NCBI GenBank assembly: GCA_049724395.1
Contig: JAUGWO010000060.1
Span: 124,001 to 188,000, forward strand
Source: Spongospora subterranea f. sp. subterranea
Taxonomy: Eukaryota
Reading direction: 5' to 3'
DNA: 64,000 bases
Part shown: piece after piece, positions 32,590-61,520 of the stretch
Layout: every line of letters begins with the position of its first letter
Numbering within the stretch: the first letter of the stretch is position 1
Notes under the pieces: generated by a model
What the model saw: only the letters and a program-made list of their open reading frames with translations
What the model was told of the DNA's origin: nothing
Database searches by the model: none
Made by a program: the position numbers and the translations under genes

Positions 32590-33960
32590 GCTCGAAAGCA
32601 AAGTCATCCTCGTTACCACCCACCTGTGCTCAATCACTTCCTCGAAATCAAGTCATCCTCGTTACCACCCACCTGTGCTCAATCACTTCCTCGAAATCAA
32701 GTCATCCTCGTTACCACCCACCTGTGCTCAATCACTTCCTCGAAAGCAAGTCATCCTCGTTACCACCCACCTGTGCTCAATCACTTCCTCGAAAGCAAGT
32801 CATCCTGTTACCACCCACCTGTGCTCAATCACTTCCTCGAAATCAAGTCATCCTCGTTACCACCCACCTGTGCTCAATCATGCTTCCTCGAAATCTTCCT
32901 CGAAAGCAACTCATCCTCGTTACCACCCACCTGTGCTCAATCACTTCCTCGAAAGCAACTCATCCTCGTTACCACCCACCTGTGCTCAATCACTTCCTCG
33001 AAAGCAACTCATCCTGTTACCACCCACCTGTGCTCAATCACTTCCTCGAAATCAAGTCATCCTCGTTACCACCCACCTGTGCTCAATCACTTCCTCGAAA
33101 GCAAGTCATCCTCGTTACCACCCACCTGTGCTCAATCACTTCCTCGAAAGCAAGTCATCCTCGTTACCACCCACCTGTGCTCAATCACTTCCTCGAAAGC
33201 AAGTCATCCTGTTACCACCCACCTGTGCTCAATCACTTCCTCGAAATCAAGTCATCCTCGTTACCACCCACCTGTGCTCAATCACTTCCTCGAAAGCAAG
33301 TCATCCTCGTTACCACCCACCTGTGCTCAATCACTTCCTCGAAAGCAAGTCATCCTCGTTACCACCCACCTGTGCTCGATCACTTCCTCGAAAGCAAGTC
33401 ATCCTCGTTACCACCCACCTGTGCTCAATCACTGTGCTCAATCACTTCCTCGAAAGCAACTCATCCTCGTTACCACCCGCCTGTGCTCAATCACTTCCTC
33501 GAAATCAAGTCATCCTCGTTACCACCCACCTGTGCTCAATCACTTCCTCGAAAGCAAGTCATCCTCGTTACCACCCACCTGTGCTCAATCACTGTGCTCA
33601 ATCACTTCCTCGAAAGCAACTCATCCTCGTTACCACCCGCCTGTGCTCAATCACTTCCTCGAAATCAAGTCATCCTCGTTACCACCCACCTGTGCTCAAT
33701 CACTTCCTCGAAAGCAAGTCATCCTCGTTACCACCCACCTGTGCTCAATCACTTCCTCGAAAGCAAGTCCTCCTCGTTACCACCCACCTGTGGTCAATCA
33801 CTTCCTCGAAAGCAAGTCATCCTCGTTACCACCCACCTGTGCTCAATCACTTCCTCGAAAGCAAGTCCTCCTCGTTACCACCCACCTGTTCTCAATCACT
33901 TCCTCGAAAGCAAGTCATCCTCGTTACCACCCGCCTGTGCTCAATCACTTCCTTAAAGCA
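32590..33960 (+). repeat. Minisatellite, 49-bp unit, ~28 copies
   Basis: Unit CCTCGTTACCACCCACCTGTGCTCAATCACTTCCTCGAAAGCAAGTCAT, with substitution variants, 3-nt-deleted units and 13-nt internal duplications. Confidence 0.97.
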
Positions 33961-34332
33961 TTTCATCCGCGTTACCGTCAACTCTAATAAGATGCACCCT
34001 TACCCGTATCATACTCTGTTTGTTGAAAGGAGCACCACTCCTGTTAAATAACGCGACTCTATTATGCGCACCGGATTGTGTATTCTTTTTGCGGCCATTA
34101 TCAAATACTGCCCTGGTAGTCATTCATCAACCCTCCCGCCTCCTGTTGGATCCGCCGGTACATTCAACCCTAAACATTATTCGCTATTCTTTTCAAACCT
34201 CCCCAGGTTCCCTCGTTCCAGTTCCTAATTCTCCAACCCAGTCCATCTTGTCGAGGCAGATTGGTTCCCAAATTTAAACGATACCGCTATATGCGATTTT
34301 TGAATCTGGGGCCTGAATAAACTCTCATCTAA

Positions 34333-36780: not shown

Positions 36781-37225
36781 CGGCTCTGCTAGCTCTGCTG
36801 GTAGGGGGTAACCAGTTGCCTGCTGACCTTCCTTGATCTGTAAATAATCCAACAATTTTATTAGATCATTTTTGTTCGAACATGAAGAACAGCTCTTGAG
36901 CCTTTTCTACTCAAACGGCGACAGCACAACTTTTGAACATGAAAGTGGGAAACCCTATTGAAACCCTTACCCCACAGGCCACAGTGGAAGATTCTCCATT
37001 TTCCGCGGTCATCAATTATATGTTCTAGCCCCTGATAGGTTCCTACGGTCTCCGCCACGGTGTCCGAGAGCCGTAGTGGGAAGGCGCCGGTGTTGTTGTG
37101 ATCTGATCGCGGAAGCTGTTCATTCACCAATCGCCTTGCTCGTGGTTGAAGCAATGATTGCCAGCCGTGTACTAAGGTAAGCCCATTGATTTTCATTTCC
37201 AATTCAGTTGCCGGTGTTGTAAATT

Positions 37226-37325
37226 TGGGACTTGATGACCATCTTTCCCCGAACAAATTCTGCTTTGAGTACAAAATTACCGCAACTGCCGTCTTCAAGT
37301 CAATTGGCTTTTGCGACTGATCCCA
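37226..37325 (+). ncRNA. Box C/D snoRNA, SNORD12/snR190-like (copy 1)
   Basis: Terminal stem TGGGA/TCCCA, box C TGATGA 37233-37238, box D CTGA 37317-37320. TCTTTCCCCG (37242-37251) is complementary to LSU rRNA CGGGGAAAGA. The D' box is degenerate. Confidence 0.65.
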
Positions 37326-37493
37326 TATTTATTATACCGTTTTCTGATGTTTTATTTCGCAGCTATTCACTAACATTATACTGATCCTTATTTGATTAGG
37401 TTGTCGCAATCTCGCATCTTTTCGATAATGTCGTCGATACGCATCCCTCATCCAAGGTAATATTAATATGGTTATTTGTTTGTATATGTTTGT

Positions 37494-37588
37494 TCGATAT
37501 GATTACATCTTTCCCCGTGTGAATTCGATACCTGAACACATGAAATGCAAGTTTTGCAGCCAGCAGAACACTATTGCGCTATGATCGA
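37494..37588 (+). ncRNA. Box C/D snoRNA, SNORD12/snR190-like (copy 2)
   Basis: Stem TCGAT/ATCGA, box C variant ATGATTA 37499-37505, box D variant ATGA 37581-37584. Guide TCTTTCCCCG-T before D' GTGA (37519-37522) places the +5 position on the third G of LSU CGGGGAAAGA (yeast G2395 equivalent). Confidence 0.65.
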
Positions 37589-37744
37589 CTTATCTATATT
37601 TCATTTGATGTTTTGCTTTTTGACCTAGCGATTCATCGTCAAAGGCTGATCAATGAACAGGCGAAGATCTATACTCGGATGCCCATTCGTGGGGTAACTG
37701 TCGTATTCTATTATCAGGTATGTAGCTCATTGTAAAGCTCGATT

Positions 37745-37819
37745 TTAAGTGATGATTCATTCAGTTCTGCTTCTGAATTTTTTTGTAGAATACTTATATA
37801 CCAAAAATAGTCTGATTTC
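37745..37819 (+). ncRNA. Box C/D snoRNA, U38/snR61-like, double guide
   Basis: Box C GTGATGA 37749-37755. Guide CAGTTCTGCTT before D' CTGA 37773-37776 pairs LSU AAGCAGAACUG (yeast Am1133 equivalent). A second guide, TACCAAAAATAG, before box D 37812-37815 pairs the adjacent LSU AUUUUUGGUA. Confidence 0.85.
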
Positions 37820-37899
37820 AACTAAACATTTTGTTCTTCATGTTTTTTGTAAGCAATTAATTGACTGCTTATTTATAGGTAATCAAATACGATACTCTA

Positions 37900-37987
37900 A
37901 AATTATGATGAGTTTCGTCTCAGACGGGCGGTCGGAAGTCGGACTTTACAAATCCGACGTATTGTCGATTTTTTATAATCTGATTTA
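37900..37987 (+). ncRNA. Box C/D snoRNA, U43/snR70-like
   Basis: Box C ATGATGA 37905-37911. Guide GACGGGCGGT before D' variant CGGA pairs SSU ACCGCCCGUC (yeast Cm1639 equivalent). Internal hairpin GTCGGA/TCCGAC. Box D CTGA 37980-37983. Confidence 0.8.
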
Positions 37988-38109
37988 CTTTTTATCGTTT
38001 TACCCAACCATCAAAGTCCATTTGATTTATGGATTGTTTTGCAGGAGTCGGCTTGTGACTCAGAATTCTCTCGGAAACCCATTATGTAAGTTTTCTCAAC
38101 CAAACAATT

Positions 38110-38189
38110 TTGCAATGATGATTTTAATTTACAGACCTGTTCCGAGAGATATGTATGTGGACAATAGTGAATTCCTCGTTTCTGAGCAA
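38110..38189 (+). ncRNA. Box C/D snoRNA, double guide: U25/snR56-like plus snR57-like
   Basis: Stem TTGC/GCAA, box C ATGATGA 38115-38121. ACAGACCTGTT+CCGA pairs SSU AACAGGUCUGU (Gm1428 equivalent). GAATTCCTCGTT-T+CTGA (38182-38185) pairs SSU AACGAGGAAUUC (Gm1572 equivalent). Confidence 0.92.
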
Positions 38190-38293
38190 CAATTTTTTGT
38201 TTTACTCCAATGCTAATTGTGCAATTGCTGATCGGTTTTTTGTTTCTAGGTCTTGAGTATCCACCATCGTAAGATATTTTCATACATTTTCGT

Positions 38294-38372
38294 TGTCCGG
38301 TGATGTACATATTATATTTGCTACTCTTGAACTACCTTGATGACCAAAATATCACCAAGATCTCTGAGGACA
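38294..38372 (+). ncRNA. U24: Box C/D snoRNA U24
   Basis: Stem TGTCC/GGACA, U24-type box C TGATGT, C' TGATGA. Guide TATTTGCTACT+C+TTGA pairs LSU AGUAGCAAAUA (Am1449 equivalent). Guide CACCAAGATCT+CTGA pairs LSU AGAUCUUGGUG (Cm1437 equivalent). Confidence 0.95.
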
Positions 38373-38505
38373 TCTAACGTTGTTTAATTTGGGTTCATTT
38401 TTCAAGAAGTCTAAGACTTATTCTTTTTCGTGTCCAGTGTGCGGTCTCTCGTTGTAGCCTCTCCCTGTGTTTTCTTGGTAAGATACTTTTTTTATCTGCT
38501 TTTCT

Positions 38506-38605
38506 TTTCCTGATGAAAGCATGATCATTTTTCTATGATATAAGCATATTCTCATTTGTTTATTAGCCATGATTCAGCAATTCATGCTGCCTTCCTTCTG
38601 AACTT
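38506..38605 (+). ncRNA. Box C/D snoRNA, snR52-like (SSU Am420 equivalent)
   Basis: Box C TGATGA 38511-38516. The 13-nt guide TGCTGCCTTCCTT directly before box D CTGA 38598-38601 pairs SSU AAGGAAGGCAGCA. Confidence 0.88.
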
Positions 38606-38751
38606 TGCTTTTTTTTTGTAACCGCATTGGGTGTTGACAGTTTTCTAAACTTTATCTTTGTCCAGGCGCTGCGTCTTCTCTAAGGGATGTTCTCGATTTC
38701 ACCATCATCAGGTAATTATTCAGATACAGTAATTCAATGTTGGTGTTTCTT

Positions 38752-38827
38752 TTTTCTGATGAGATATGTCAAGTCCAATTCTAAATCACCATGTTGATTT
38801 GCAAATCGAGCTTTTTAAATCTGAGCC
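38752..38827 (+). ncRNA. Box C/D snoRNA, U36/snR47-like (SSU Am619 equivalent)
   Basis: Box C TGATGA 38757-38762. Guide CGAGCTTTTTAA before box D CTGA 38821-38824 pairs SSU UUAAAAAGCUCG. Confidence 0.88.
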
Positions 38828-39415
38828 TACTTTTTCCAGTTTTTGTTGTTTTACAGGGTATTGTTGCTGACGTCAATGTTCATTTAGGTGTGCTCTTGTC
38901 GTGTTGACCGTTCTCCTGCACCATCTTTAATACATTTTTCTGATCATTCTCCAGCAATCTCGCGACATCGTTTTGTATCGTAGATTGACGCTTTCATAGC
39001 AAGTCAGATTGTAGATTTGTTGACCGCCTTTAGGGAAGGAAGTGACGTCCTCGTACGATTGCGAGATAATGGCACTGAATGTAGGGCTGGACCCATTAAC
39101 CATAATTACGAGAACAAAACGATACACATTATGAAGGATTCACCATCATAGATGAACCAGACCGTCAACTGTAATTGCGACCGAATGCGGCAGAGTCGAT
39201 CCGTTCATCACAGATTCGCGCCGTAACGAACGAATACCAAAAAATCTGTGGGTTGCTCTGCCAAACCTAATCGGGCCAGATCGGCGCCGTTTAACGTTGC
39301 AGACTACGTAAACCCCGTTCAAGTGTGATTGCTGTGTAACAGGCCATCGTACCATCGTTACCCCTGTCGTTACCACCAACAACCGCGCAGTTGTCATAGC
39401 AGTGTCGCTATTCAC

Positions 39416-45019
<5,604 letters not shown>

Positions 45020-45042
45020 TTTTTTTGAGTGTATAAATTACG

Positions 45043-46176
45043 TTAATTACTTTGTGGATCTGGCAATGGTGTAGGCGGGGGGTCGTCGGGGCTTTGTGGA
45101 TCTGCAAATGCTGTAGACGGAGGGTCGTCCGGGCTCTCTTCATCGTCAGATAAAATTATCAATCCTCTCAACGGAGGATGAGGGTACATAAATTTCTTAG
45201 AATAGTCAACCTCGAACCCTAAATGTTTGAGGACGCCTACGACTTCCTTTCGCTTCATTATATGTGGTATATGACTGACAGGTCTCACGTTTCGGCTCCT
45301 GCTTATGCAGATGATATTTCTCAGCACTGTCTCCAACCATTCTCGAAATAAATCATAGAGCGCCCCGGCTCCCACACGCCTGTATCCGTACTTTCGCCTG
45401 ATCAATATTCTATAGAACAATCGCTCCTTCATGAAATCGGGAATGTCATATGTTTTCGAAGATGGAAGAGGCTGGTGATCGAACTCCACGTCGCTGCATG
45501 TAGAATCCGAATCCACAGTTAGACGGTCAGAATCGGAATCAAGCCCGTCAACAGTTTCATCATCTTGGTCACTAGAAGCCCCAAAAAATATTGGTGACGG
45601 TGGCTCTGGAATAACCATAGCATTCAAGGCCTCGATATAGTTGGCAATCTGGATGACATTCAGTGATGGTACTCTAGCAGCAATCAGATCAATATTTCCT
45701 CGTCCACAACGTCGTATGGCCCATTGCAGTCTGTATTTTTCCTCTATTGTGAGGTCTGGCAGACGGAATATTGGAACATCCTCTTCTGGTAAGTGTTTCA
45801 ATCGGGTCAAAGCATCATAATCTTCAAAATATGTTGATGATGCGTACGACATGTCATCTTCCTCTAGTTCGCTTTCCAGGTGTTGCCCTGGTTCGCTTTC
45901 CAGGTGTTGCCCTGGTTCGCTTTCCAGGTGTTGCTTTGGTTCGCTTCCCAGGTCTTGAAGTTGCCCTTGACTGTATTCATCAGAGCCGCACGACAAGGAC
46001 GAATTTTGGAAAATTTCGAAATCCAAATTGGCTGGTTTAAAGCGGAAAAGATCACGGTGAGGATCATCGTCGTCGATCAAATTGATGGGCGAACCTGAAT
46101 CTAAGCCGCTCCGCATCCTTTTTATCACATCCACCAGCGGGCTATCCTCTGCCGGACGTTTGCCATGGCGTTCCAT
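45043..46176 (-). CDS. SANT/Myb + histone-fold protein (Rrn5-like architecture), intronless
   Basis: LTIEEKYRLQWAIRRCGRGNIDLIAARVPSLNVIQIANY is SANT-like. ILIRRKYGYRRVGAGALYDLFREWLETVLRNIICIS..EVVGVLKHLG resembles an H4-like fold. An 8-aa repeat ESEPGQHL is present. Confidence 0.6.
   Translation of the reverse strand: MERHGKRPAEDSPLVDVIKRMRSGLDSGSPINLIDDDDPHRDLFRFKPANLDFEIFQNSSLSCGSDEYSQGQLQDLGSEPKQHLESEPGQHLESEPGQHLESELEEDDMSYASSTYFEDYDALTRLKHLPEEDVPIFRLPDLTIEEKYRLQWAIRRCGRGNIDLIAARVPSLNVIQIANYIEALNAMVIPEPPSPIFFGASSDQDDETVDGLDSDSDRLTVDSDSTCSDVEFDHQPLPSSKTYDIPDFMKERLFYRILIRRKYGYRRVGAGALYDLFREWLETVLRNIICISRSRNVRPVSHIPHIMKRKEVVGVLKHLGFEVDYSKKFMYPHPPLRGLIILSDDEESPDDPPSTAFADPQSPDDPPPTPLPDPQSN
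45866..45955. repeat. 24-bp coding tandem repeat (~4 copies)
   Basis: GGTTCGCTTTCCAGGTGTTGCCCT units encode ESEPGQHL on the minus strand. Confidence 0.9.
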
Positions 46177-46501
46177 ATCTTCTGTGACGGCCGCGAACAG
46201 GCGACGCCTTTGGGCGCAGGACGGCCGTGCGGGAATGTCCCAAACCTGCGTAGCCTTCGACCACGCTGAGGAAACAACAATCAGATCCACGGTCGATTGT
46301 AGAATGACCTCACTGGCCTAGAGCAACATTCATGTCGAATTACGTTGCATTGATTCCTCCCACATGAACTTCAGGTCACGTGTCGACTGCATTGAGTGGG
46401 CATGCATTGCATTACATTGTTAGACACTCGTTTCGCTTATCCTTACAACATATACATAGGCATTGTAGTAATCATCGTTGCCGTCGATTCAAGAGCATCA
46501 T

Positions 46502-49500
46502 ATGGAGGGCAGCTTGGTTCAGGAATTCTTTGGTGAACAATACGGTACCCCACAACCAAAAAGGCCAAGAATTGACATTTCAGATCATCTCCAGCCAGCG
46601 CAGAAGTCATTGCGCTCTTTGAATGAATTAGAACTCAATCACAGATCAGTATTTTCTGGTTATAAGACGTTCAATCGTGTCCAGAGTATTGTATTTGAAG
46701 ATTTATATCACTCAGACAAAAGCATTGTCGTCGCAGCCCCGACCGCCTCTGGAAAAACCGTATTGTTTGAGCTTGCCATTTTGCGTTTATTTTCCTCCCA
46801 GCAGGACAGAAGTAGATTTAAGGCTGTGTACATTGCGCCATTAAAAGCATTATGCAATGAGAAACTACAATCTTGGCAATCACGTTTCGGCAACCTGGGA
46901 TTGAAATGCTGTGAATTCACTGGAGACTCCAACAACGACGTGAATCGCATTGCATCCAATCATATCATGTTGGTCATAAACTTAAATGATAGAATGGTAT
47001 TTAAGGCGGTTTCATCAGCATTACAACTCCAGAAAAACTGGATGCGTCCTCCCGTCGGTGGCAAGAGAACAAGTTCTTCTTTGACAATATCGGGCTTATG
47101 ATGATCGATGAAGTTCACACTGTAGGAGAACCTAGGGGTCGGGGTATCTGTCTAGAGGCGCTGATCACCAGGTTAATCACAGCAGTTTTGATAGCTTTCG
47201 CTAAAAGGGTATACGTTTTCCCAGGTGTCTTACCATGGGTATTCGAAAAAAGGAGCAAAACGATAATTGTCCAGCCTCAACTATGCGATTCGTTGCAGTT
47301 TCAGCAACCGTGCCAAACGCGGACGAACTTGGATCTTGGTTGCAGGCAAAACACTTTCAGTTTGGGGACAACTTTCGCCCAGTTCCCTTACAGTATCATG
47401 TTTTCGGTTATCCTATTCGCAAACAGCAGTCATATTATCCGTTTGATATGAGCCTAAATTACAAGGTATTTCACAATAAACTGGAATCACAGCTTATGAC
47501 GCCTTGACCAGGTTTTTGATATTATCCGACAATATTCTTCTGGCAGACCTGCTTTAGTATTTTGTTCAAGTAGAGCAGGCTGCTTGAAATGTGCAAAACA
47601 GGTTTTGGAAAGCGCAGCAAGTTCGGGATTCCGGTTTGTCAAAGATCATGAACATGAACAGTCTCTGAAAGTGCACAGCCAGCAACTCAAAGGTACACTG
47701 CTCTTCAAAACGCCCTGCACAAATTGAGGTGGGTACCCAACAGATGCGTCTCTTCGTGACATTTTCTGTCGTGGTGTAGCGATACATACGGCTGCCTTAT
47801 CTGCAGAAGATAGACAACTGATACTTGGCAATTTTGTTGCTGGGAGGATTTTGGTGCTCTGCGCAACAACTACATTAGCCCAGGGAGTTAACGTACCAAT
47901 CTTCATTATTGTTTTGTGATTTATGTTTTCGACATTCGACAATTTAGTTGCCGGCTGGTCTAGTGATCGTAAAGGGAACGCAAGTCTACAATAAAAGCCC
48001 TAGCGGCTTCACGGAGCATTCGTCAGCTACGATCTTGCAAATGTTCGTAAATTGATTCAAGATGTGCCGCATGATACTCTTTTACAGGATCGGGCGTGCG
48101 GGACGACCCCAGTTTGATGATTTCGGTGTTGCGATTGTTATGACAACAGCGAACATGGGGACGTTTTATGAAAATCTTTTGAAGGGTCAAAAGCCCATTG
48201 AGTCCCACTTGCTTGCTGGGAACGCGGCTGAGCATCTTAATGCCGAAATATCCATGCGTACTGAAACAATGTTCATCTTGGTGTCACCTTTGAAACTTGT
48301 TTACAGGAACAATCAATACTGTCCACGAAGCAGTGAATTGGATGCAAAACACGTTCGGGTCTGTTCGAATGAAAAAGTGCCCATCACAATTCGGGATTTC
48401 AGCTCGAGAAATTGAAGATCCTGCAGCTTATCAAACCGTCAGTGCAATCAAAGCTTAAGTATCGGAACTAACCCTTCCGGCAAGGTCCTGGAAAACCGAA
48501 TTCGACATTCTATTGCAACCCTAGAATCTGCTGGAATGGTTGAAAGTCAGCTACTGGATAGCAGAGTGATTCCCACACGATTAGGCGTCACCATGGTATA
48601 TGTAGACGAATGAGATAGCAAGTTCAGTTTCCATATCAAATTTCATAGGCCAAGTTTTACTTAAAAATCCCCACTGCAAGATTGATCGCTGACATTCCTC
48701 GAAACATAGACATGTGCGGTCTGATTAATATTATCGCGTCGTCCATTGAATTCGTTGATATGCCCATTCGTCAAGGGGAAAAAGCTCGTAAGTCTGTTTA
48801 GTGATACTGAGAAACAAATTTAACCGATTTTTTACATAGCCCTTAACGCCGCAAATAATAAAGAAACGATTAGGTTCGCATTCAAAGGAAAAGTTAAAAC
48901 TCTGGTAAACAATAGCACTCTAGTTGATGGTGCCTCAATGGTTGTCAAGGTGCATAAGATATCCATTCTGCTTTTGTGCGCTCTGCAATCTGCCTCGTCC
49001 TCCCCTTTTCAGTTGAATCTCTTAGATCAAGACCTGAAAAATGCACTAGACATTGCCAAAAGAATTACGGTGACTACTTACTTGCATCAGTTCTCGTTTT
49101 TCAACCAGGTTTAGAGGGCAGTTACCGAATATCATGGAGCGAGTGATAAGTCGTTTTCCGTTTACTTGAACAGCTTATTACTGTCAGTATTATTTGCTGA
49201 TGAATAATCTGACTTAAGATTTAACCATAGTCATAAAGCTTTTGAGAGGAGGATGTGGCATGACAGTCAATACTCTGTTAGGCAGATTGAGGGAATTGGG
49301 ATGAAAAAAGCCGCACAATTGATAGCTGCAGGGATTACAAGCATCGATAAGCTCAGAGAAATATCATCAGGGAAAATTGAAGCGGTTTGATGTTGTGGTA
49401 TTCAAATTTTACGGCTATGATACGCTATACACAGCTTTGCGATCGAAACCCACCGTTTGGCTTTCAAGTCAAACAGCGATTGTGTGGATTCCCAATGATC

Positions 49501-50807
49501 GAGCTCCGTATTCAGGTATATATATTTTGCAAATAATGTTGTTTGCACAACTTGTTGCCAGATCCCTGATACGACGAACACGTTGCGGTCATATCCTGTT
49601 AAGATTATGGTTCAACAGATTTGCCCAGACTTCTGTTGTTCGCAGTATTCTCCAGTAATTCTGCTAGCGGGGTTATCGGACGATCGACATCTCCTTTCTC
49701 GAAAGCTCAAGTGAGTGAGTCGAATTTGTCTTATTTGACAATGCTGATACTTTGAAGTCTACCTAACGGAACGTCAAGCCATGAATTTAGTATAATGGGT
49801 ACTTGAAAGTGTGGTGCCACACGAAATCCATTTGATTTTGAGCTGTGCATCAGTTCCATCCGACGCAGAAGGACTGGAGCTGCACGTTCATGCGATCCAT
49901 GAAGACAAAATCGGTTGTGACCAGCACGTGCATCAGCCTTTATGTATGACATTTAATGATGTGGCTCTGTTGCAGCCTTCGGTGGCAGGTAAAGTACTAT
50001 AATGTACATGCGGACCATTCTGATTTGATGCACTTTTAGTGCCTGTAGAAAGGCTCGCTAAGAAACAGGATGTTTGGAGTCAACAAACGAAGGTCTCATT
50101 CAATCCCATTCTATCACTGAATATAACGGTTTTAACAGTTTATGAGACAACAATTGGCAAGTATCGTGCCAGAGTCAAAAAAGATGCGGCTGCACACTGC
50201 AACAAGGCAAACGCAACCTGAAGTTTCCATGACTCAAAATCCACAGCAACGGCTTCTACTTTCACATCGCACCAATTCAAGTGACATGCAATCAAATATT
50301 GGATATTCACGGCCACGACTAGGTATAACATCGTGGAAGCTTCCATCTCCTGAGGCGACAACCATTCATGGCTGGGAGATAAATGCCGGCGAAATGAGCG
50401 AGTCGAGAGCTACTCAAACAGTTCCAGATAGAGTCCTTGACAAGCCTATTTTTGGCATTCCAAACATGTTCAATGCTGTCTCTGATACTGCGTCAACGGT
50501 GTCGATGAGAAATCGAGATGGAGTTTGTGACCACAACGTTGGAACCCGGCATTTCGAACCATCAGATTACGATGAAACACACAATCTACGAGTTTCTTCA
50601 GGGCATGGTGCTATTCCTCTAGAACCATACCGCTATTCCGGTGGAGTATCCGCAACACCTTCCAGCTGCATATGCGACACCTTTGAAAAGAATGATTTTC
50701 AAAATCGCTCCTGCGTTCCTCAAATACCACAACTGCAATTCGAACAAAACCCAGATTTTTGTAGCAGCCAGTTAATATTTGGTGATATATTTGCAGAGCA
50801 GCAATAA
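46502..50807 (+). CDS. MER3: Meiotic Ski2-like DNA helicase MER3/HFM1 with Sec63 domain (multi-exon)
   Basis: FNRVQS..APTASGKTVLFELAILRL, VYIAPLKALCNE, TTPEKLD, IDEVH, RFVAVSATVPNA, FRPVPL..VFGY..FDMSLNYK, TTTLAQGVNLPA, QMIGRAGRPQFD and IESHL..EHLNAEI. Confidence 0.9.
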
Positions 50808-52699: not shown

Positions 52700-54830
52700 A
52701 AAATACGAAAACCTGGGACCCCACTATTGCTCAATTTTCTGGTCGACAGCAGACTTGGCTCCATTAAGACGTTTCAGCATGGGGACCAGACTGGTGTCGA
52801 TGATATTCTGTACGTTGCCTACGGTTTCGCCATTGCCAATGTCCACCACGTCCATGGGCACTGCAAGGACTCTGTGACGTGCACGCAATCCAATCGTTAC
52901 ACCGTGGTTCAGAGATTTTGGGCAATTCGCGATTACAGTACGGTAAAATTGCATAATAATGTCAAAGACTGTGGTATCGAATTATACTATATAGGCTGCC
53001 TTAATCAGTAAACCATGGAACAAATATCGTTTATGATTTTTTTTAGTCGAGTTGGTTCATTTTCATTGAACCGTCATGGACAGTCGATGACTCGGCGATG
53101 ACACGTGTATATCAAGGTCCTTGAAAAAAGCAATTGCTCGAACCGACATTCAAAGCACATCAACGTTCGTATCATTTCATCCAACCGAGAGCAAAATTTA
53201 GAAAAACGAATCGAGATCGGGCCATTTTACAAAAGCCCAATTCATGGGGCCTACAGAGGAAACATTCGTCTGTATGGGCACAAGCAACGGAGAGCGCCAA
53301 ACTCATGACTCGCCTCACTACCTTGTTACCTGACAATGGATCCGAGTATGTCAATAACCAGACAGCGCTTTCTTATCACAGACGAATATCAAACACCAAC
53401 TTGGCCATTTGTAGTCCAATACTCAACCTACAACGCTGAATCGACTACCGACGCGGCGCAACCCCTGTTGGATTATGGATGAACGACAAGCCTGACGTCG
53501 AACATTTGAGACCATTTGGATGTACTGCATATGCGCACATCGAATCCACAATGCGAGATTCAAAATCAATCCAATCCACCTGACTAAAATGCCAATTCTT
53601 AGGATACTCACTATATCAGAAACGCTGCACACTGTCACCGTCGAGCACCGCTGCGATCATCATAACACGAGACGTACAAGCGGCGATTGATATGTTTGAC
53701 GAATCAGATTCATTGACCATCGTGGACGACGTGATTCGAAATCCATCACACTCTCACCAACTTTCCGAAAACTTACGAGGTTGCCATGACGCGGCTGACG
53801 CTCATGAATGGCATGCAGCCGCAGATCAGGAAATGGCATTGCACAAAGAAACCATACTTGGGCACTCATATGTCTCGCAGTCAACAGCACCTGGAAGATA
53901 AACCAGAGAGATTTTAACCACAGCCTATTTGAACGCGCCACTACTGATCCCGATCTACGTTCAACAGACGTAAGGTTTTATCGAGCCCGGGATGCGAACA
54001 GGATGTGCATGCTTAACAAAGCCCTCTACGGCTTAAAACAGGCCGGTTGAGCTTGGCAGGCATCACTCTTCGACCTGATTCGCAACAACGGATTTTCTCA
54101 ATCCATGAAAGAACAGTGGGGATAACCATCTTCGGAACTGACGTCAATGATCTACTATTGACAGGAAAAGGACAAGGCTTAGTATTCGAAAAAAAATCCA
54201 GATTTAGATCTAACCTTCACACAGAGCGATCACCAACTTACAGGATGGGCGGACAGCGATTTGCTGGAGACAGAAGCGAACTAGTGGATGGATATTTTGC
54301 GTTAAACATAACGTCATGATTCATGGTGATAGAGCGCCAAATATCGTCGGCAATCGGCAATGGGCAGAGGATCCCGCGTGGTCGATGACGACTGTCGTGG
54401 AAAAGTATAAAGCAAATTGCCATGACTTTATCCACAACAGAAGCCGAATATTGCAGCTTCGGATGCGACAAAGGAAACCATATGGTTACAAGATCTTCTT
54501 TATGAATAACGGTCAAGTAACTCAAGGAGCAATTTTTGTTGAAACGAATACCTCCAACAAGTCACGAACCAAACACATAGACCTGAGACATCATTTCATT
54601 CGTGAGAAGACACAGGAAGGACGAATCAATTTTGAATATTGTCCAACCGAACTCATGATTGCAGACATTCTTCAAAACCACTCTCACATCCACTCTCCGT
54701 AAAACATCGCACTACGTTAATGGCCAAGAGATCAGTGACTATTCAGTGTCACGCTTCTAGTCACAGTGATACTGTTAGATCTTGTTACTTGTACAACGCC
54801 AATGTTACAATCACACTGTATTGTATGTGA
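52700..54830 (+). mobile_element. Degenerate, internally deleted Ty1/Copia LTR retrotransposon
   Basis: Integrase DNGSEY and KPDVEHLRPFGCTAYAHI; RT LNKALYGLKQAG; RNase H WADSDFAGD, EAEY and RTKHIDLRHHFIREK..CPTELMIADI. An LTR-like start TGTCACGCTTCTAGTCA lies at ~54747. Confidence 0.88.
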
Positions 54831-54839
54831 AATCATAAC

Positions 54840-57800
54840 AACGGGTGCACCGATTGATGTTCAATAGAAGAAGTGACTTGAATTATGGTATTCAGGTAAC
54901 GATATCTAAGTGTCATTGTACGCCATAGTCACTGTGGTAGTGCCGCTGTTGCACATCTCTTGTCCATTAACGTAGTGCGATGTTTTACGTAGAGTGGATG
55001 TGAGAGCGGTTTGGGGGTGAGGATATCTGCAATCATGAGCTCGGATGGACAGTATACAATATTGATCCGTCCTTCTTGTGTCTTCTCACGAATGAAATGA
55101 TGTCTTACGTCTATATGTTTGGTCCGCGACCTGTTAGAGGTAGTCTTCTCAAGGAAAATTGCACCTTGGTTATCTTGATACAAAGTCGCGTGTATTTTGG
55201 AAAGTATTGCAAGTTCATAAAGTAGATCTTGTAAGCATCTGGCTCCTTCGTCGCATCGGAAGCTGCAATATATTCGGCTTCTGTTGTGGATAAAGTAACT
55301 GTATTTTGTTTCTTTTTTTTTTCAAGAGATGACGTTATGTCCAATTGAAAATATCCATCCAGTAGTCGACTTACGATCGCTCTTGTCTCCAGCAAAATCG
55401 CTATCCGCCCATCCTGTACGTTGGTGATCTCTCTGTGTGAAGGTTAGACCTAAATCTGGGAGTTCCTTTTAAATACTTGTTATTCTTTGAATGGCTATCC
55501 ATAAAGATTTCGTGGGCTTGGTAACATGTCGGCTGATGTTGTTGATTGCGAATGCCAGGATCAGGGTCTCGTCGCATTTGCCAGGTAGGTAAGACTTCCA
55601 ATGCTTCACAAATCGGGTATGTGGTGATGCTAGCGTCGTCATCTGGCGGACCATTATGGGCCAAAACTTAAGATGAAAAACTTAGGTGAAATACAAAGAT
55701 TTCTCGGACTATGAGGCAAGATGAAAAACTGAGGACACAGATTTCTCGGATTACAAGCAAGATGATCGTCCTCACACACAAGGATTACACGCTCTTTATC
55801 ATATCCAAATTCGGACAGGAGAACTGCGAACACCAACCCCCATATCGGAAATCTAAACGCCAGATGACAACGCTAGCATCACCACATACCCGATTCGTGA
55901 AGCATTGGAAGTCTTACCTACCTGGCAAATGCGACGAGACCCTGATCCTGGAATTCGCAATCAACAACATCAGCCGACATGTCACCAAGCCCACGAAATC
56001 TTTATGACTAGCCATTCAAGGTTTTGAAGTATCTGGGCTCGTTCAGCTGAGATGTTCGACGAACTGCTGAGTGCGAGCACGTTCGGATTCTTTTATAAAC
56101 GAGAAGGATTTGAAGTTGAGCTTTCTGAGTCCAGGGGTGGCGGTTCAGGAGCTTGACTAATTGTTTGAGTTTCTCTTGTAATTCAGAAGGAAAAATGGAA
56201 TAACAAAAGGCACGAATGGTTTGACTGGTCTAGCTATTGGTTCTCGTTGATTAATCCTGACAGCCCTCGTATAGTGGAAGCAGGGTGAGAAGAATGTGGT
56301 GGAAGATGCTGGAATGTGCTAATTGGTTCAGCGTAAGATTTAAACGAGATGATGCCTTCAGTGGACTTCACATGATAGTGAGGTCCAAGAAGTCGACATG
56401 TTCTTTAGATATGTTCCAGGTGAGTTGAATTCATGGAATGAACTCATTCATTTCATTCAAACATTGCCAGAGATCAAAGGATGTTGTCAATCTCGGCCCG
56501 TTTCCTGTTAGTAACAGATCATCGACAAATGTTCCGATGATGGTTATCCCCTTGCCCTTCTTCTTATACCATATACACGGCTCTTTCATGGATTAAGTAA
56601 ATCCATTGTTGCGAATCAGATCGACTTTAATGATGTCTGCCAAGCTCTACCGGCCTGCTTTGAGCCGTAAAGGGCTTTGTTGAGCATGCACACCTTGTTC
56701 GCGTCCCCGGGCTTGATTCCAGCGGTCGGACGTAAATGGGATCAATAGTGGCGCGTTCAATGAGGCTGTGGAAAAGTCTCTCTGGTATATCTTGTGCTTC
56801 AAAAACTTGACCCATGTCCAGGTGGAGTATCTGTATCCTTCCTTGCTAAGAACCAGGAATGGTCCTTCAAGGTCTGAAAAAACGATTTCAAATGACCTAG
56901 TTGACTTTGTCCAACGTTCCTGTGCGAATGGTTGCTTCCGTGACTTTCCATGGGCACAGTTTTCGCAGAGCTGTCGTTCTTGCGGTGTGATTTTGACGCC
57001 TTCAGTGGGTTCTTGTAAATGCTTCAGTCTCTCGTCCGATGCGTGATCGAATCTTCGGTGCGCTAGCGCCATGCTAAGTCGTTGTGCTTGTGCGCCGTAA
57101 CGATAACCTTTCCATCTTGATTCTTGATACGAGTCGATGACTACGCTTAAACCTTGATCGGTAAACGATTTCGTAGCTAACAGGGACGAAAAATATATTG
57201 TGGATACAAATTGGTGGTTTGCATTGTATGGTCAGTGATCCTTGTCTGTATGCAGGTGATATCTCGCCGTTGCTGCAAGTGATCATGATCGGGTCCTGTA
57301 GTGACCTGTGGTTGTGAAGTAAGTTCAAATCATTCGACGTTCGCGCGACTATCGATGATATAGGCACTGTTGATGGAAACGTTCTGGTGGACGCACTGTG
57401 GAATCCTGTAAACTCCTGTTCCTTTTCGTCAGTCGTGGTCGTGTTGTTCAGTTCAGAGGACGGTTGTTCTTATATTGCGTCTTCAAGTGTGGGTGCAGTA
57501 GCCAGCATTCTTCGTTCGAATGCGTTTATCGACTGCAGCGTGTGCAGCACTTGCCGTTGTTGTATTTATTGCCTCTGTCTTTGTTGTTGTTATTTGACTT
57601 TTCCTTATGCCACTTGGTTCGCTCAATATTAAGAGATGTGTCATTTTCGAGGTCTTTTGTCAATAGTAAGTTCGTCAGTCTTGCAATAGAATTTATTTGA
57701 GATGCTCTGGCGGCTGCCTTGGTGGTTGGTATTGATCCGGCAAGCCATCAAGGGCCTTGACGCATAGGGCTAGTTCGCTAACGTCGATGTTGTGGACTCT

Positions 57801-58402
57801 CAGGTCATGGTATAGTTCTACCATTTTGCCTAGGTGTCCTTTCATAGTTTGATTCGGCTGCTTCTGGTGGTGGATGAATCGAAGAAATAAGTTCGCTGCC
57901 TTGGATTTTGCTGTTTGAACGTAAATCTCCTGGAGCGTTGTCCATAATTCATTTGTTGTCGTGCATCTGGAAACCTGTTTATATTGAGTTTGTGATAATC
58001 GCATGCTGGATTGAGCGGAGGCGAGTTGATCGTTGCGTTGTTCGATCGTGTTGCCGCGGGTTGGCGGGTAGGGTAAGAACGAGTCGATGTCCATTATTAC
58101 AAACTTTGTCTCGGTCGTGCGTCGGAATTCCTCCCAATTTCTTCCGGTGAATTCCGGGATCAGTTTTAGTCCCGAGTTGTGTTTCGAGATATTGGCCTCT
58201 TATCTTGATCGGTGCGTGTATGGTGTTTACATAGCTTCGTTGGGTGTGTCTGGAGTGGTGTCCTCCTCTTGAGTCTCTCTTTGTATTTGTATCATCTTGT
58301 GTAGAGCAAAACTGGGACTCTCAAGTTAATAACGGGTGCACCGATTGATGATCATTACAAGAAGTACGATATCTAAGTATCACTATGACTAGAAGCGTGT
58401 AG
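54840..58402 (-). mobile_element. Degenerate Ty1/Copia LTR retrotransposon with short LTR remnants at both ends
   Basis: gag (ELWTTLQEIY), a Zn knuckle, HRRFDH..CENCAHGK, VFSDLEGP, RT KALYG.KQAG and FVDDLL, RNase H STTEAEYIA and DNQGAI..RTKHID. The direct repeat AACGGGTGCACCGATTGATG occurs at 54840 and 58331. Confidence 0.92.
55487..56019. repeat. ~160-bp inverted duplication inside the Copia element
   Basis: 55487-55648 is a close reverse complement of 55858-56019, with a ~210-bp spacer. The same peptide appears on both strands in the ORF track. Confidence 0.9.
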
Positions 58403-61433: not shown

Positions 61434-61520
61434 GCCTCTTTAGCTCAGTTGGCAGTAGCGTAGGTCTCATATCCAAAAAGAGAAATCCTGAGGTCGCGCG
61501 TTCGATCCGCGCAGGGGGCA
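61434..61520 (+). tRNA. tRNA-Met(CAT), second copy, 13-nt intron
   Basis: Mature sequence identical to the 58425 copy, with one extra A in the intron. T8 terminator follows. Confidence 0.93.

Follow-up and report, generated by a model that had tools for sequence, protein, structure and literature searches.

An apparent zero-length exon between two box C/D snoRNA introns in a predicted non-coding host gene of Spongospora subterranea

Introduction

Ratchet points in animals split introns that are tens of kilobases long, and in vertebrates they often come with a cryptic exon. The arrangement considered here, in which two introns abut, is already known with RNA evidence from several fungi, and only the lineage is new. 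The available text of Luo et al. (2013, PMC3596301) reports at least 61 cases of exon loss in fungi that resulted in juxtaposed snoRNA introns, with EST and RT-PCR products that fit either stepwise 5'-to-3' splicing or alternative acceptor choice. Candida clusters undergo classical, nested, and recursive splicing according to the accessible part of Donovan et al. (2016, PMC5033589), which also places a zero exon between snR41 and snR70 of D. hansenii. Chen et al. (10.1101/226894) found that the 336-nt intron of SPNCRNA.445, the S. pombe host of snoRNA61, contains a zero-length exon, and Burke et al. (10.1101/224170) describe a recursively spliced 375-nt intron of Cryptococcus neoformans BOT1, removed as 210 + 165 nt. 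The statement, made in a preliminary description of the present locus, that recursive sites are known chiefly from very long animal introns overlooks these fungal reports.

Here we consider an AG/GT junction in a 64,000-nucleotide stretch of Spongospora subterranea f. sp. subterranea DNA (the window). As far as the S. pombe case is described in the accessible text, both loci have a short composite intron (327 nt here) in a non-coding snoRNA host, with abutting 3' and 5' splice sites and the involvement of snR61; the S. pombe site, however, was detected by spliceosome profiling and belongs to a different supergroup, whereas ours is read from sequence. The locus also resembles the fungal 'complex introns' (snR57-55-61 and snR41-70-51), as partially available reports depict them, in its polycistronic non-coding host, its single C/D snoRNA per intron, and its zero exon between two such introns. 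As in the part of the D. hansenii account that was available, the zero exon immediately precedes the snR70 intron, or here that of an snR70/U43-like RNA. The snoRNA order in the window (snR61, snR70-like, snR56, U24, U83, and U36-like) differs from that of the fungal clusters so far as these are accessible, the host is rhizarian, and the stepwise 5'-to-3' intermediates documented there by EST and RT-PCR contrast with an arrangement known here from sequence. The BOT1 intron likewise combines a zero-nucleotide exon with a short intron and halves of similar size, but BOT1 is protein-coding and the accessible text mentions no snoRNA for it. As at Drosophila and mammalian ratchet points, AG/GT would regenerate a donor after the first step, although a composite intron of 327 nt is not very long.

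The likely purpose of the arrangement is to provide one lariat per snoRNA within this 327-nt stretch. The mechanism itself is not new. A shallow literature search, which missed most subscription papers, returned no published report on this host gene, nor any of recursive splicing in Rhizaria. If confirmed, the junction would add Rhizaria to the fungi as a lineage that releases intronic snoRNAs recursively, and the annotation of the host gene would be corrected. It would also support the view that non-coding snoRNA hosts can dispense with their exons, which act as spacers, while selection keeps intron ends and the distance from box D to the branch point.

Results and discussion

The snoRNA host gene and the local splice model

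We predict a non-coding host gene at 37.0–39.1 kb on the + strand, with eight box C/D units that each lie in a GT..AG frame of 161–223 nt (Table 1). Two of the snoRNAs score above the Rfam gathering threshold, three are weak Rfam matches, and three were recognized through conserved motifs. The joined exon model of 642 nt, the ends and junctions of which are predicted, has a longest ATG-started ORF of 35 aa. On these predictions, the locus is a polycistronic non-coding C/D snoRNA host gene of the UHG/gas5-like or fungal cluster type.

Table 1 Features of the predicted snoRNA host gene and of the junction under study (positions in the window).
Feature	Position	Strand	Evidence or remark
Intron 1 (predicted), C/D snoRNA 1 at about 37232-37320	37177..37399	+	Guide motif shared with the SNORD12-like RNA of L013
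Non-coding exon (predicted), 57 nt	37400..37456	+	
Intron 2 (predicted; alternative acceptor 37660), C/D snoRNA 2 at 37499-37584	37457..37628	+	
Non-coding exon before composite intron, 89 nt (57 nt if from 37661), ends CAG	37629..37717	+	
Intron 3 (predicted), 161 nt: donor GTATGT, snR61, TTGAC, acceptor TAG	37718..37878	+	
snR61 C/D snoRNA, box C to box D	37749..37815	+	Rfam RF00476, 59.3 bits, gathering 45; match span 37744-37818
Rival acceptor AAG	37851..37853	+	38 nt past box D; overlaps donor-like GTAAGC at 37849; absent from the preliminary description
Branch-like TTGAC, putative branch point	37861..37865	+	A = 37864; 49 nt past box D of snR61, 14 nt before acceptor G
TAG/GTAATC junction	37876..37884	+	3' splice site 37878 abuts 5' splice site 37879; putative zero-length exon
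Intron 4 (predicted), 166 nt: donor GTAATC, snoRNA 4, TTGAT (A 38025), acceptor CAG	37879..38044	+	
C/D snoRNA 4, U43/snR70-like by guide GACGGGCGG	37905..37983	+	
Non-coding exon (predicted), 41 nt, after composite intron	38045..38085	+	
Intron 5 (predicted), snR56-like snoRNA at 38115-38185	38086..38249	+	Rfam RF01188, 41.1 bits, below gathering 54
Exon (predicted), 19 nt	38250..38268	+	
Intron 6 (predicted), SNORD24/U24 at 38300-38367	38269..38437	+	Rfam RF00069, 56.3 bits, gathering 41; match span 38295-38371
Exon (predicted), 40 nt	38438..38477	+	
Intron 7 (predicted), U83/snR52-like snoRNA ending 38601	38478..38665	+	Weak Rfam matches; like L017 U83 match
Exon (predicted), 46 nt	38666..38711	+	
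Intron 8 (predicted; alternative acceptor 38856), SNORD36-like snoRNA at 38756-38824	38712..38887	+	Weak Rfam RF00049 match
Ambiguous GT..AG stretch, 67 nt	38888..38954	+	Start of last exon or ordinary intron after 31-nt exon, likelier than second recursive unit

The snoRNA of intron 4 gave no Rfam match to SNORD43 or snR70 at E values up to 10. Its naming as U43/snR70-like, both the family and the SSU rRNA target, is an assignment that we take from the guide GACGGGCGG. Six aligned sequences (the window and five other loci) show no variation in this guide or in box D, and almost none in box C. The acceptor of intron 4, a CAG ending at 38044, lies 61 nt past box D of this RNA.

The first two snoRNAs of the gene are tandem paralogues with the same guide after box C. 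The guide of snoRNA 1, TCTTTCCCC, is common to a SNORD12-like RNA of L013, one of the loci considered below, where the RNA carrying it gives an Rfam SNORD12 match below gathering. Variant boxes (ATGATTA and ATGA) distinguish snoRNA 2, and its intron has two candidate acceptors, at 37628 and 37660. Before box D of the snR56-like RNA there is a second guide-like stretch, which in our estimation resembles the snR57 guide; L012 and L063 have a similar stretch 562 nt upstream of their snR61. Seven telo-box-like AAACCCT[A/T] motifs occur in the window, two of which, 11 nt apart, are located at 36950-36968, about 200 nt before the first donor of the host gene. Telo-box motifs are a feature of plant snoRNA and ribosomal-protein promoters.

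Splice sites were scored against 45 training introns of neighbouring genes, 26 of which came from aligning two Spongospora proteins to the window (19 + 7), while the remaining 19 were placed by hand in the ABC gene, guided by its reading frames. The HFM1/MER3 gene at 46.5–50.8 kb of the window has an exon with 96% identity to a Spongospora subterranea protein, and an ABC-transporter exon shows 97% identity to another, which assigns the window to this species or one very closely related to it (Rhizaria, Phytomyxea). The training introns measure 43–67 nt and have weak splice signals; their acceptors are CAG (22), TAG (18), and AAG (5), with no GAG. Splice signals of this organism are thus weak by the training set, and the exons and introns of the host gene are all predictions. 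Ordinary introns at 39977-50138 of the window are very uniform (43–67 nt), with weak donors and branch motifs, unlike the snoRNA introns of 161–223 nt, the donors of which are mostly strong.

The junction at 37878/37879

The letters at the junction are AATTAATTGACTGCTTATTTATAG/GTAATCAAAT, with AG ending at 37878 and GT starting at 37879; no base separates the acceptor TTTATAG from the donor GTAATC on the + strand. The preliminary description had reported a branch-like TTGAC, this AG, and this GTAATC, all of which are present as described, and its distances of 63 nt from the end of snR61 box D (37815) to the AG and 26 nt from the GT to the start of snoRNA 4 box C (37905) proved correct when re-measured. 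Its further claim that these are the spacings of the ordinary introns of the gene stands for one of the two. The 63 nt is typical, with box D to AG distances of 61, 64, 70, 64, 63, 79, and 44 or 76 nt in the other seven introns (64 nt in the only intron with a single candidate AG), but 26 nt is the shortest distance from donor to box C, the other introns of the host gene having 29–56 nt.

An AG/GT junction alone is no proof of a zero-length exon because 15 of the 45 training donors are preceded by AG and eight of the 45 acceptors are followed by GT; AG also precedes four of the seven other donors of the host gene. The case therefore rests on layout, namely the acceptor score, the intron sizes, and the 63-nt spacing. 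The acceptor at 37878 scores 4.5 bits with the intron-side matrix, equal to or above all 45 leave-one-out training scores. This value is attained by 0.5% of the 581 AGs used as decoys, and all 15 ends of coding exons with a terminal AG score lower. YTRAY motifs are located 14 and 18 nt upstream of the acceptor. Splitting the composite intron at 37878/37879 gives introns of 161 and 166 nt, compared with 164–223 nt for the other six. The 25 nt preceding the junction have a GC content of 24%, with intron ends at 24–40% and six exons at 45–53%. The spacer between the two snoRNAs holds two AGs (37853 and 37878) and a single GT downstream of either, at 37879.

Chance occurrence was assessed with 20,000 dinucleotide shuffles of the 89-nt spacer, using criteria picked after the site was known. 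AGGT appeared anywhere in 12.6% of the shuffled spacers and YAGGT in 6.4%. YAGGT at 55–69 nt past box D appeared in 1.1%, and in 0.17% when GTR and a preceding YTRAY were required as well, both under these post hoc criteria. The bare motif YTRAY..YAG/GTR is common, with 29 occurrences on both strands of the window, so it is the position rather than the motif that lies beyond chance.

The acceptor score, the YTRAY motifs, the 63-nt spacing, the intron sizes, the GC content, the sole GT, the neighbour arrangements at related loci, and the fungal precedent argue for a zero-length exon. We consider it fairly likely that the AG/GT at 37878/37879 joins two complete snoRNA introns that would be spliced out in turn, and the zero-length exon is probably real and functional. 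Points against it are the frequency of AG before donors, a decent AAG acceptor at 37853, the acceptor-like exon end at 37717, the donor GTAATC (0.4 bits, 40th percentile on the intron side), which ranks last among the eight donors of the host gene, and the 26-nt spacing noted above. The proposal of the preliminary description, recursive splicing with one lariat per snoRNA, would thus be the reading that the sequence layout supports best, although a 25-nt exon starting after AAG 37853 remains its rival.

A first step would join 37717 (..CAG) to 37879 through a branch point near 37864 and release the snR61 lariat. The donor left behind, CAG/GTAATC, would be slightly better than the native TAG/GTAATC (6.9 vs 6.0 with exon positions included, a difference in score only). 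A second step would join 37717 to 38045 through a branch point near 38025 and release the second lariat, and each lariat would then be debranched and trimmed to one mature snoRNA. Box D would lie about 45–50 nt from its own branch point in each case, a spacing that would favour splicing-coupled assembly of the C/D snoRNP; a review (PMC8162545) puts the optimal snoRNA position for such assembly at about 50 nt before the branch point. The opposite order, intron 4 before intron 3, would also be permitted by the sequence, and the acceptor remaining after removal of intron 4 still scores 7.8, but fungal data favour the 5' intron first. Since this transcript has no protein-coding exons, the shrinkage of one of them to zero would be tolerable.

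Alternative readings of the spacer

Intron 3 might instead end at AAG 37853, in which case 37854-37878 would be an ordinary 25-nt non-coding exon that ends in TAG by chance, a reading that we judge unlikely. The AAG follows a T-rich, pyrimidine run and scores 3.0 bits (82nd percentile), AAG acceptors are found in five of the 45 training introns and AG before the donor in 15, small exons are predicted in the host gene (one of 19 nt), and at four of five comparable loci this junction is occupied by a normal exon. Since the true exon end at 37717 also scores as acceptor-like (3.1 bits), non-coding exon ends are evidently able to mimic acceptors. However, no YTRAY occurs within 40 nt upstream of the AAG, whereas 37878 has two, and the AAG lies 38 nt from box D, as compared with 61–70 nt in five other introns, 79 nt in one, and 44 or 76 nt in another. 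Six of the seven other introns also carry an AG 32–48 nt past box D besides one at 61–79 nt, which makes such AGs common background, and box D to AG is 45 nt or less in only three of 60 scorable snR61 loci among the matches listed (see below). The proposed exon contains two branch-like motifs and is as poor in GC as stated above, although its composition scores against an exon by 2.3 bits only, a value that is partly in-sample. Intron 3 would also become 136 nt long, below all others.

Removal of 37718-38044 as one 327-nt intron, with the internal sites vestigial or unused and nucleases separating both snoRNAs from one lariat, would yield the same final mRNA as the recursive route. The fungal products in the available text of Luo et al. 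(2013, PMC3596301) are equally explained by the first donor choosing among acceptors, exon skipping is a minor route in the Candida clusters according to the accessible part of PMC5033589, and the donor at 37879 is weak. Nonetheless, single-step removal seems to us very unlikely, as both internal signals are at functional-intron spacing and the acceptor is top-scoring, no stable stem brackets both snoRNAs (RNA fold z = -0.77), and each snoRNA has its own predicted intron in the related loci. Still less probable, to the point of being remote, is some other use of the spacer, whether 37878 as an acceptor without a donor at 37879, which would make snoRNA 4 part of an exon of 207 nt, or GTAAGC at 37849 as the donor of a nested intron. 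Eight of the 45 ordinary acceptors are indeed followed by GT, and GTAAGC, which the preliminary description did not mention, scores 2.1 bits and so beats GTAATC on the intron side. The complete 3' end 61 nt past box D of snoRNA 4 (TTGAT, CAG 38044) nevertheless needs a donor. There is no AG from box D to 37849, and 37849-37878 amounts to 30 nt, under the 43 nt of the shortest training intron. With a nested intron removed, GAG would be the sole remaining acceptor, a type found in none of the 45 training introns.

snR61 loci elsewhere

A scan of metagenome contigs with the snR61 core gave at least 118 loci, 80 of those listed having wide flanks, and they look mostly fungal. Among 93 distinct loci listed, 25 without a box D by rule, three that were too short, four without a branch motif, and one with an AG too far from that motif were left out, leaving 60 scorable loci with acceptors that are motif predictions. 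The distance from box D to AG in these 60, among the matches listed, has a median of 66 nt and falls at 53–80 nt in 53; in three it does not exceed 45 nt. From box D to the branch the median is 55.5 nt, with two loci at 30 nt or less, again among the matches listed. By these predicted spacings, 37878 (63 nt, with the branch at 49 nt) fits the snR61 loci and AAG 37853 (38 nt) does not. Three matches to the snR61 pattern in prokaryote genomes were left out as uninformative, and viral contigs contained no match to it. The metagenome contigs gave no match to a linked snR61-to-U43 pattern with a spacing of about 130–190 nt, and that search returned no close orthologue of the junction from another phytomyxid (0 matches).

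A U43-like guide lies 233–283 nt past snR61 in at least six loci among the 118 listed (L013 = L047, L017, L057, L022, and L092), five of them distinct, with L017 and L057 near-identical. In L013 and L017 these two RNAs are followed by snR56, SNORD15, and U24, and in L017 then by U83, which is the order of the window except for SNORD15. At every one of these loci the snoRNAs lie in separate predicted introns, a point against one intron holding two snoRNAs. At the snR61/U43 junction, L017/L057 have a predicted exon of 64 nt, L092 one of 36 nt, and L022 one of about 63 nt; the borders of the L092 exon are matched in L022 by an uninterrupted copy of the exon chain. A 4-nt microexon was ruled out for L017/L057, where a donor 47 nt before box C, like the other donors of that gene (47–61 nt), gives the 64-nt exon.

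The acceptor of L013 is directly followed by GTTCGT (TAG/GTTCGT, 1674/1675), 64 nt before box C, other L013 donors being at 45–104 nt. An alternative donor would produce a 35-nt exon, 29 nt from box C. The layout suggests that the snR61/U43 junction of L013 is probably a zero-length exon as well. A zero exon at this junction may therefore be recurrent, with a normal exon predicted in four of the five distinct loci. A possible 1-nt exon precedes the U24 intron at L013:2715-2717, the alternative being a 25-nt exon with a GC donor. No recognisable protein was found in the L013 flanks.

The order snR61, U43-like, snR56, (SNORD15), U24, U83 is common to the window at 37177-38887, L013:1016-2940, and L017:650-2180, and L092 and L022 are likewise listed with it. 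The L013 cluster also includes SNORD12-like and SNORD36-like RNAs, and snR61 is found near U24 in L018 and L019. In L022, the exons that flank three snoRNA introns in L092 form an intronless chain, which follows the copies of snR61, the U43-like RNA, and a degenerate U24 that L022 itself has; the chain could be a processed copy, or the contig could derive from a transcript.

The snoRNA order common to distant eukaryotes is the more open side lead. The succession snR61-U43-snR56-U24-U83 is possibly an old, non-fungal cluster, and no published report of it was found in a shallow literature search that included the accessible parts of PMC3511168 and PMC2780460. A bolder proposal would be that Rhizaria and distant eukaryotes share this old cluster and that the junction before the U43/snR70 intron has repeatedly been driven to zero (Spongospora, L013, and the fungal snR41/snR70) since the order of splicing matters for snoRNA release. 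Recursive release would then be pan-eukaryotic and position-specific and not a by-product of fungal exon decay. We regard this extended proposal as speculative and distinctly unlikely.

A second AG/GT at 38887/38888

The preliminary description had pointed to a possible second case at 38887/38888. The AG/GT and the AG at 38954 are present, but as a recursive site they are weak. The donor GTGTGC at 38888 scores -0.3 bits, the stretch 38888-38954 is exon-like in composition (-1.9 bits) and holds no snoRNA, and the stronger acceptor at 38856 would place a plain 31-nt exon before 38888. On the other side, 38887 lies 63 nt past box D, which fits the acceptor of intron 8, with a CTGAC at -17, and an intron at 38888-38954 would have CTGAT and the CAG at 38954. 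A second zero-length exon at this position is accordingly possible but doubtful.

Other features of the window

A tRNA at 61434-61520 has an insertion after the anticodon that is probably an intron; it was missed by ARAGORN in bacterial mode and matched by Rfam. Fragmented ORF pieces, judged by eye, occupy 54200-58300, and we take these fragments to be a copia-like retrotransposon with RNase H-, integrase-, and gag-like parts. Upstream of the host gene, 32591-33976 consists of about 28 tandem copies of a 49-bp unit, which are about 94% identical; the array is strongly skewed to C and leaves frames open on the + strand.
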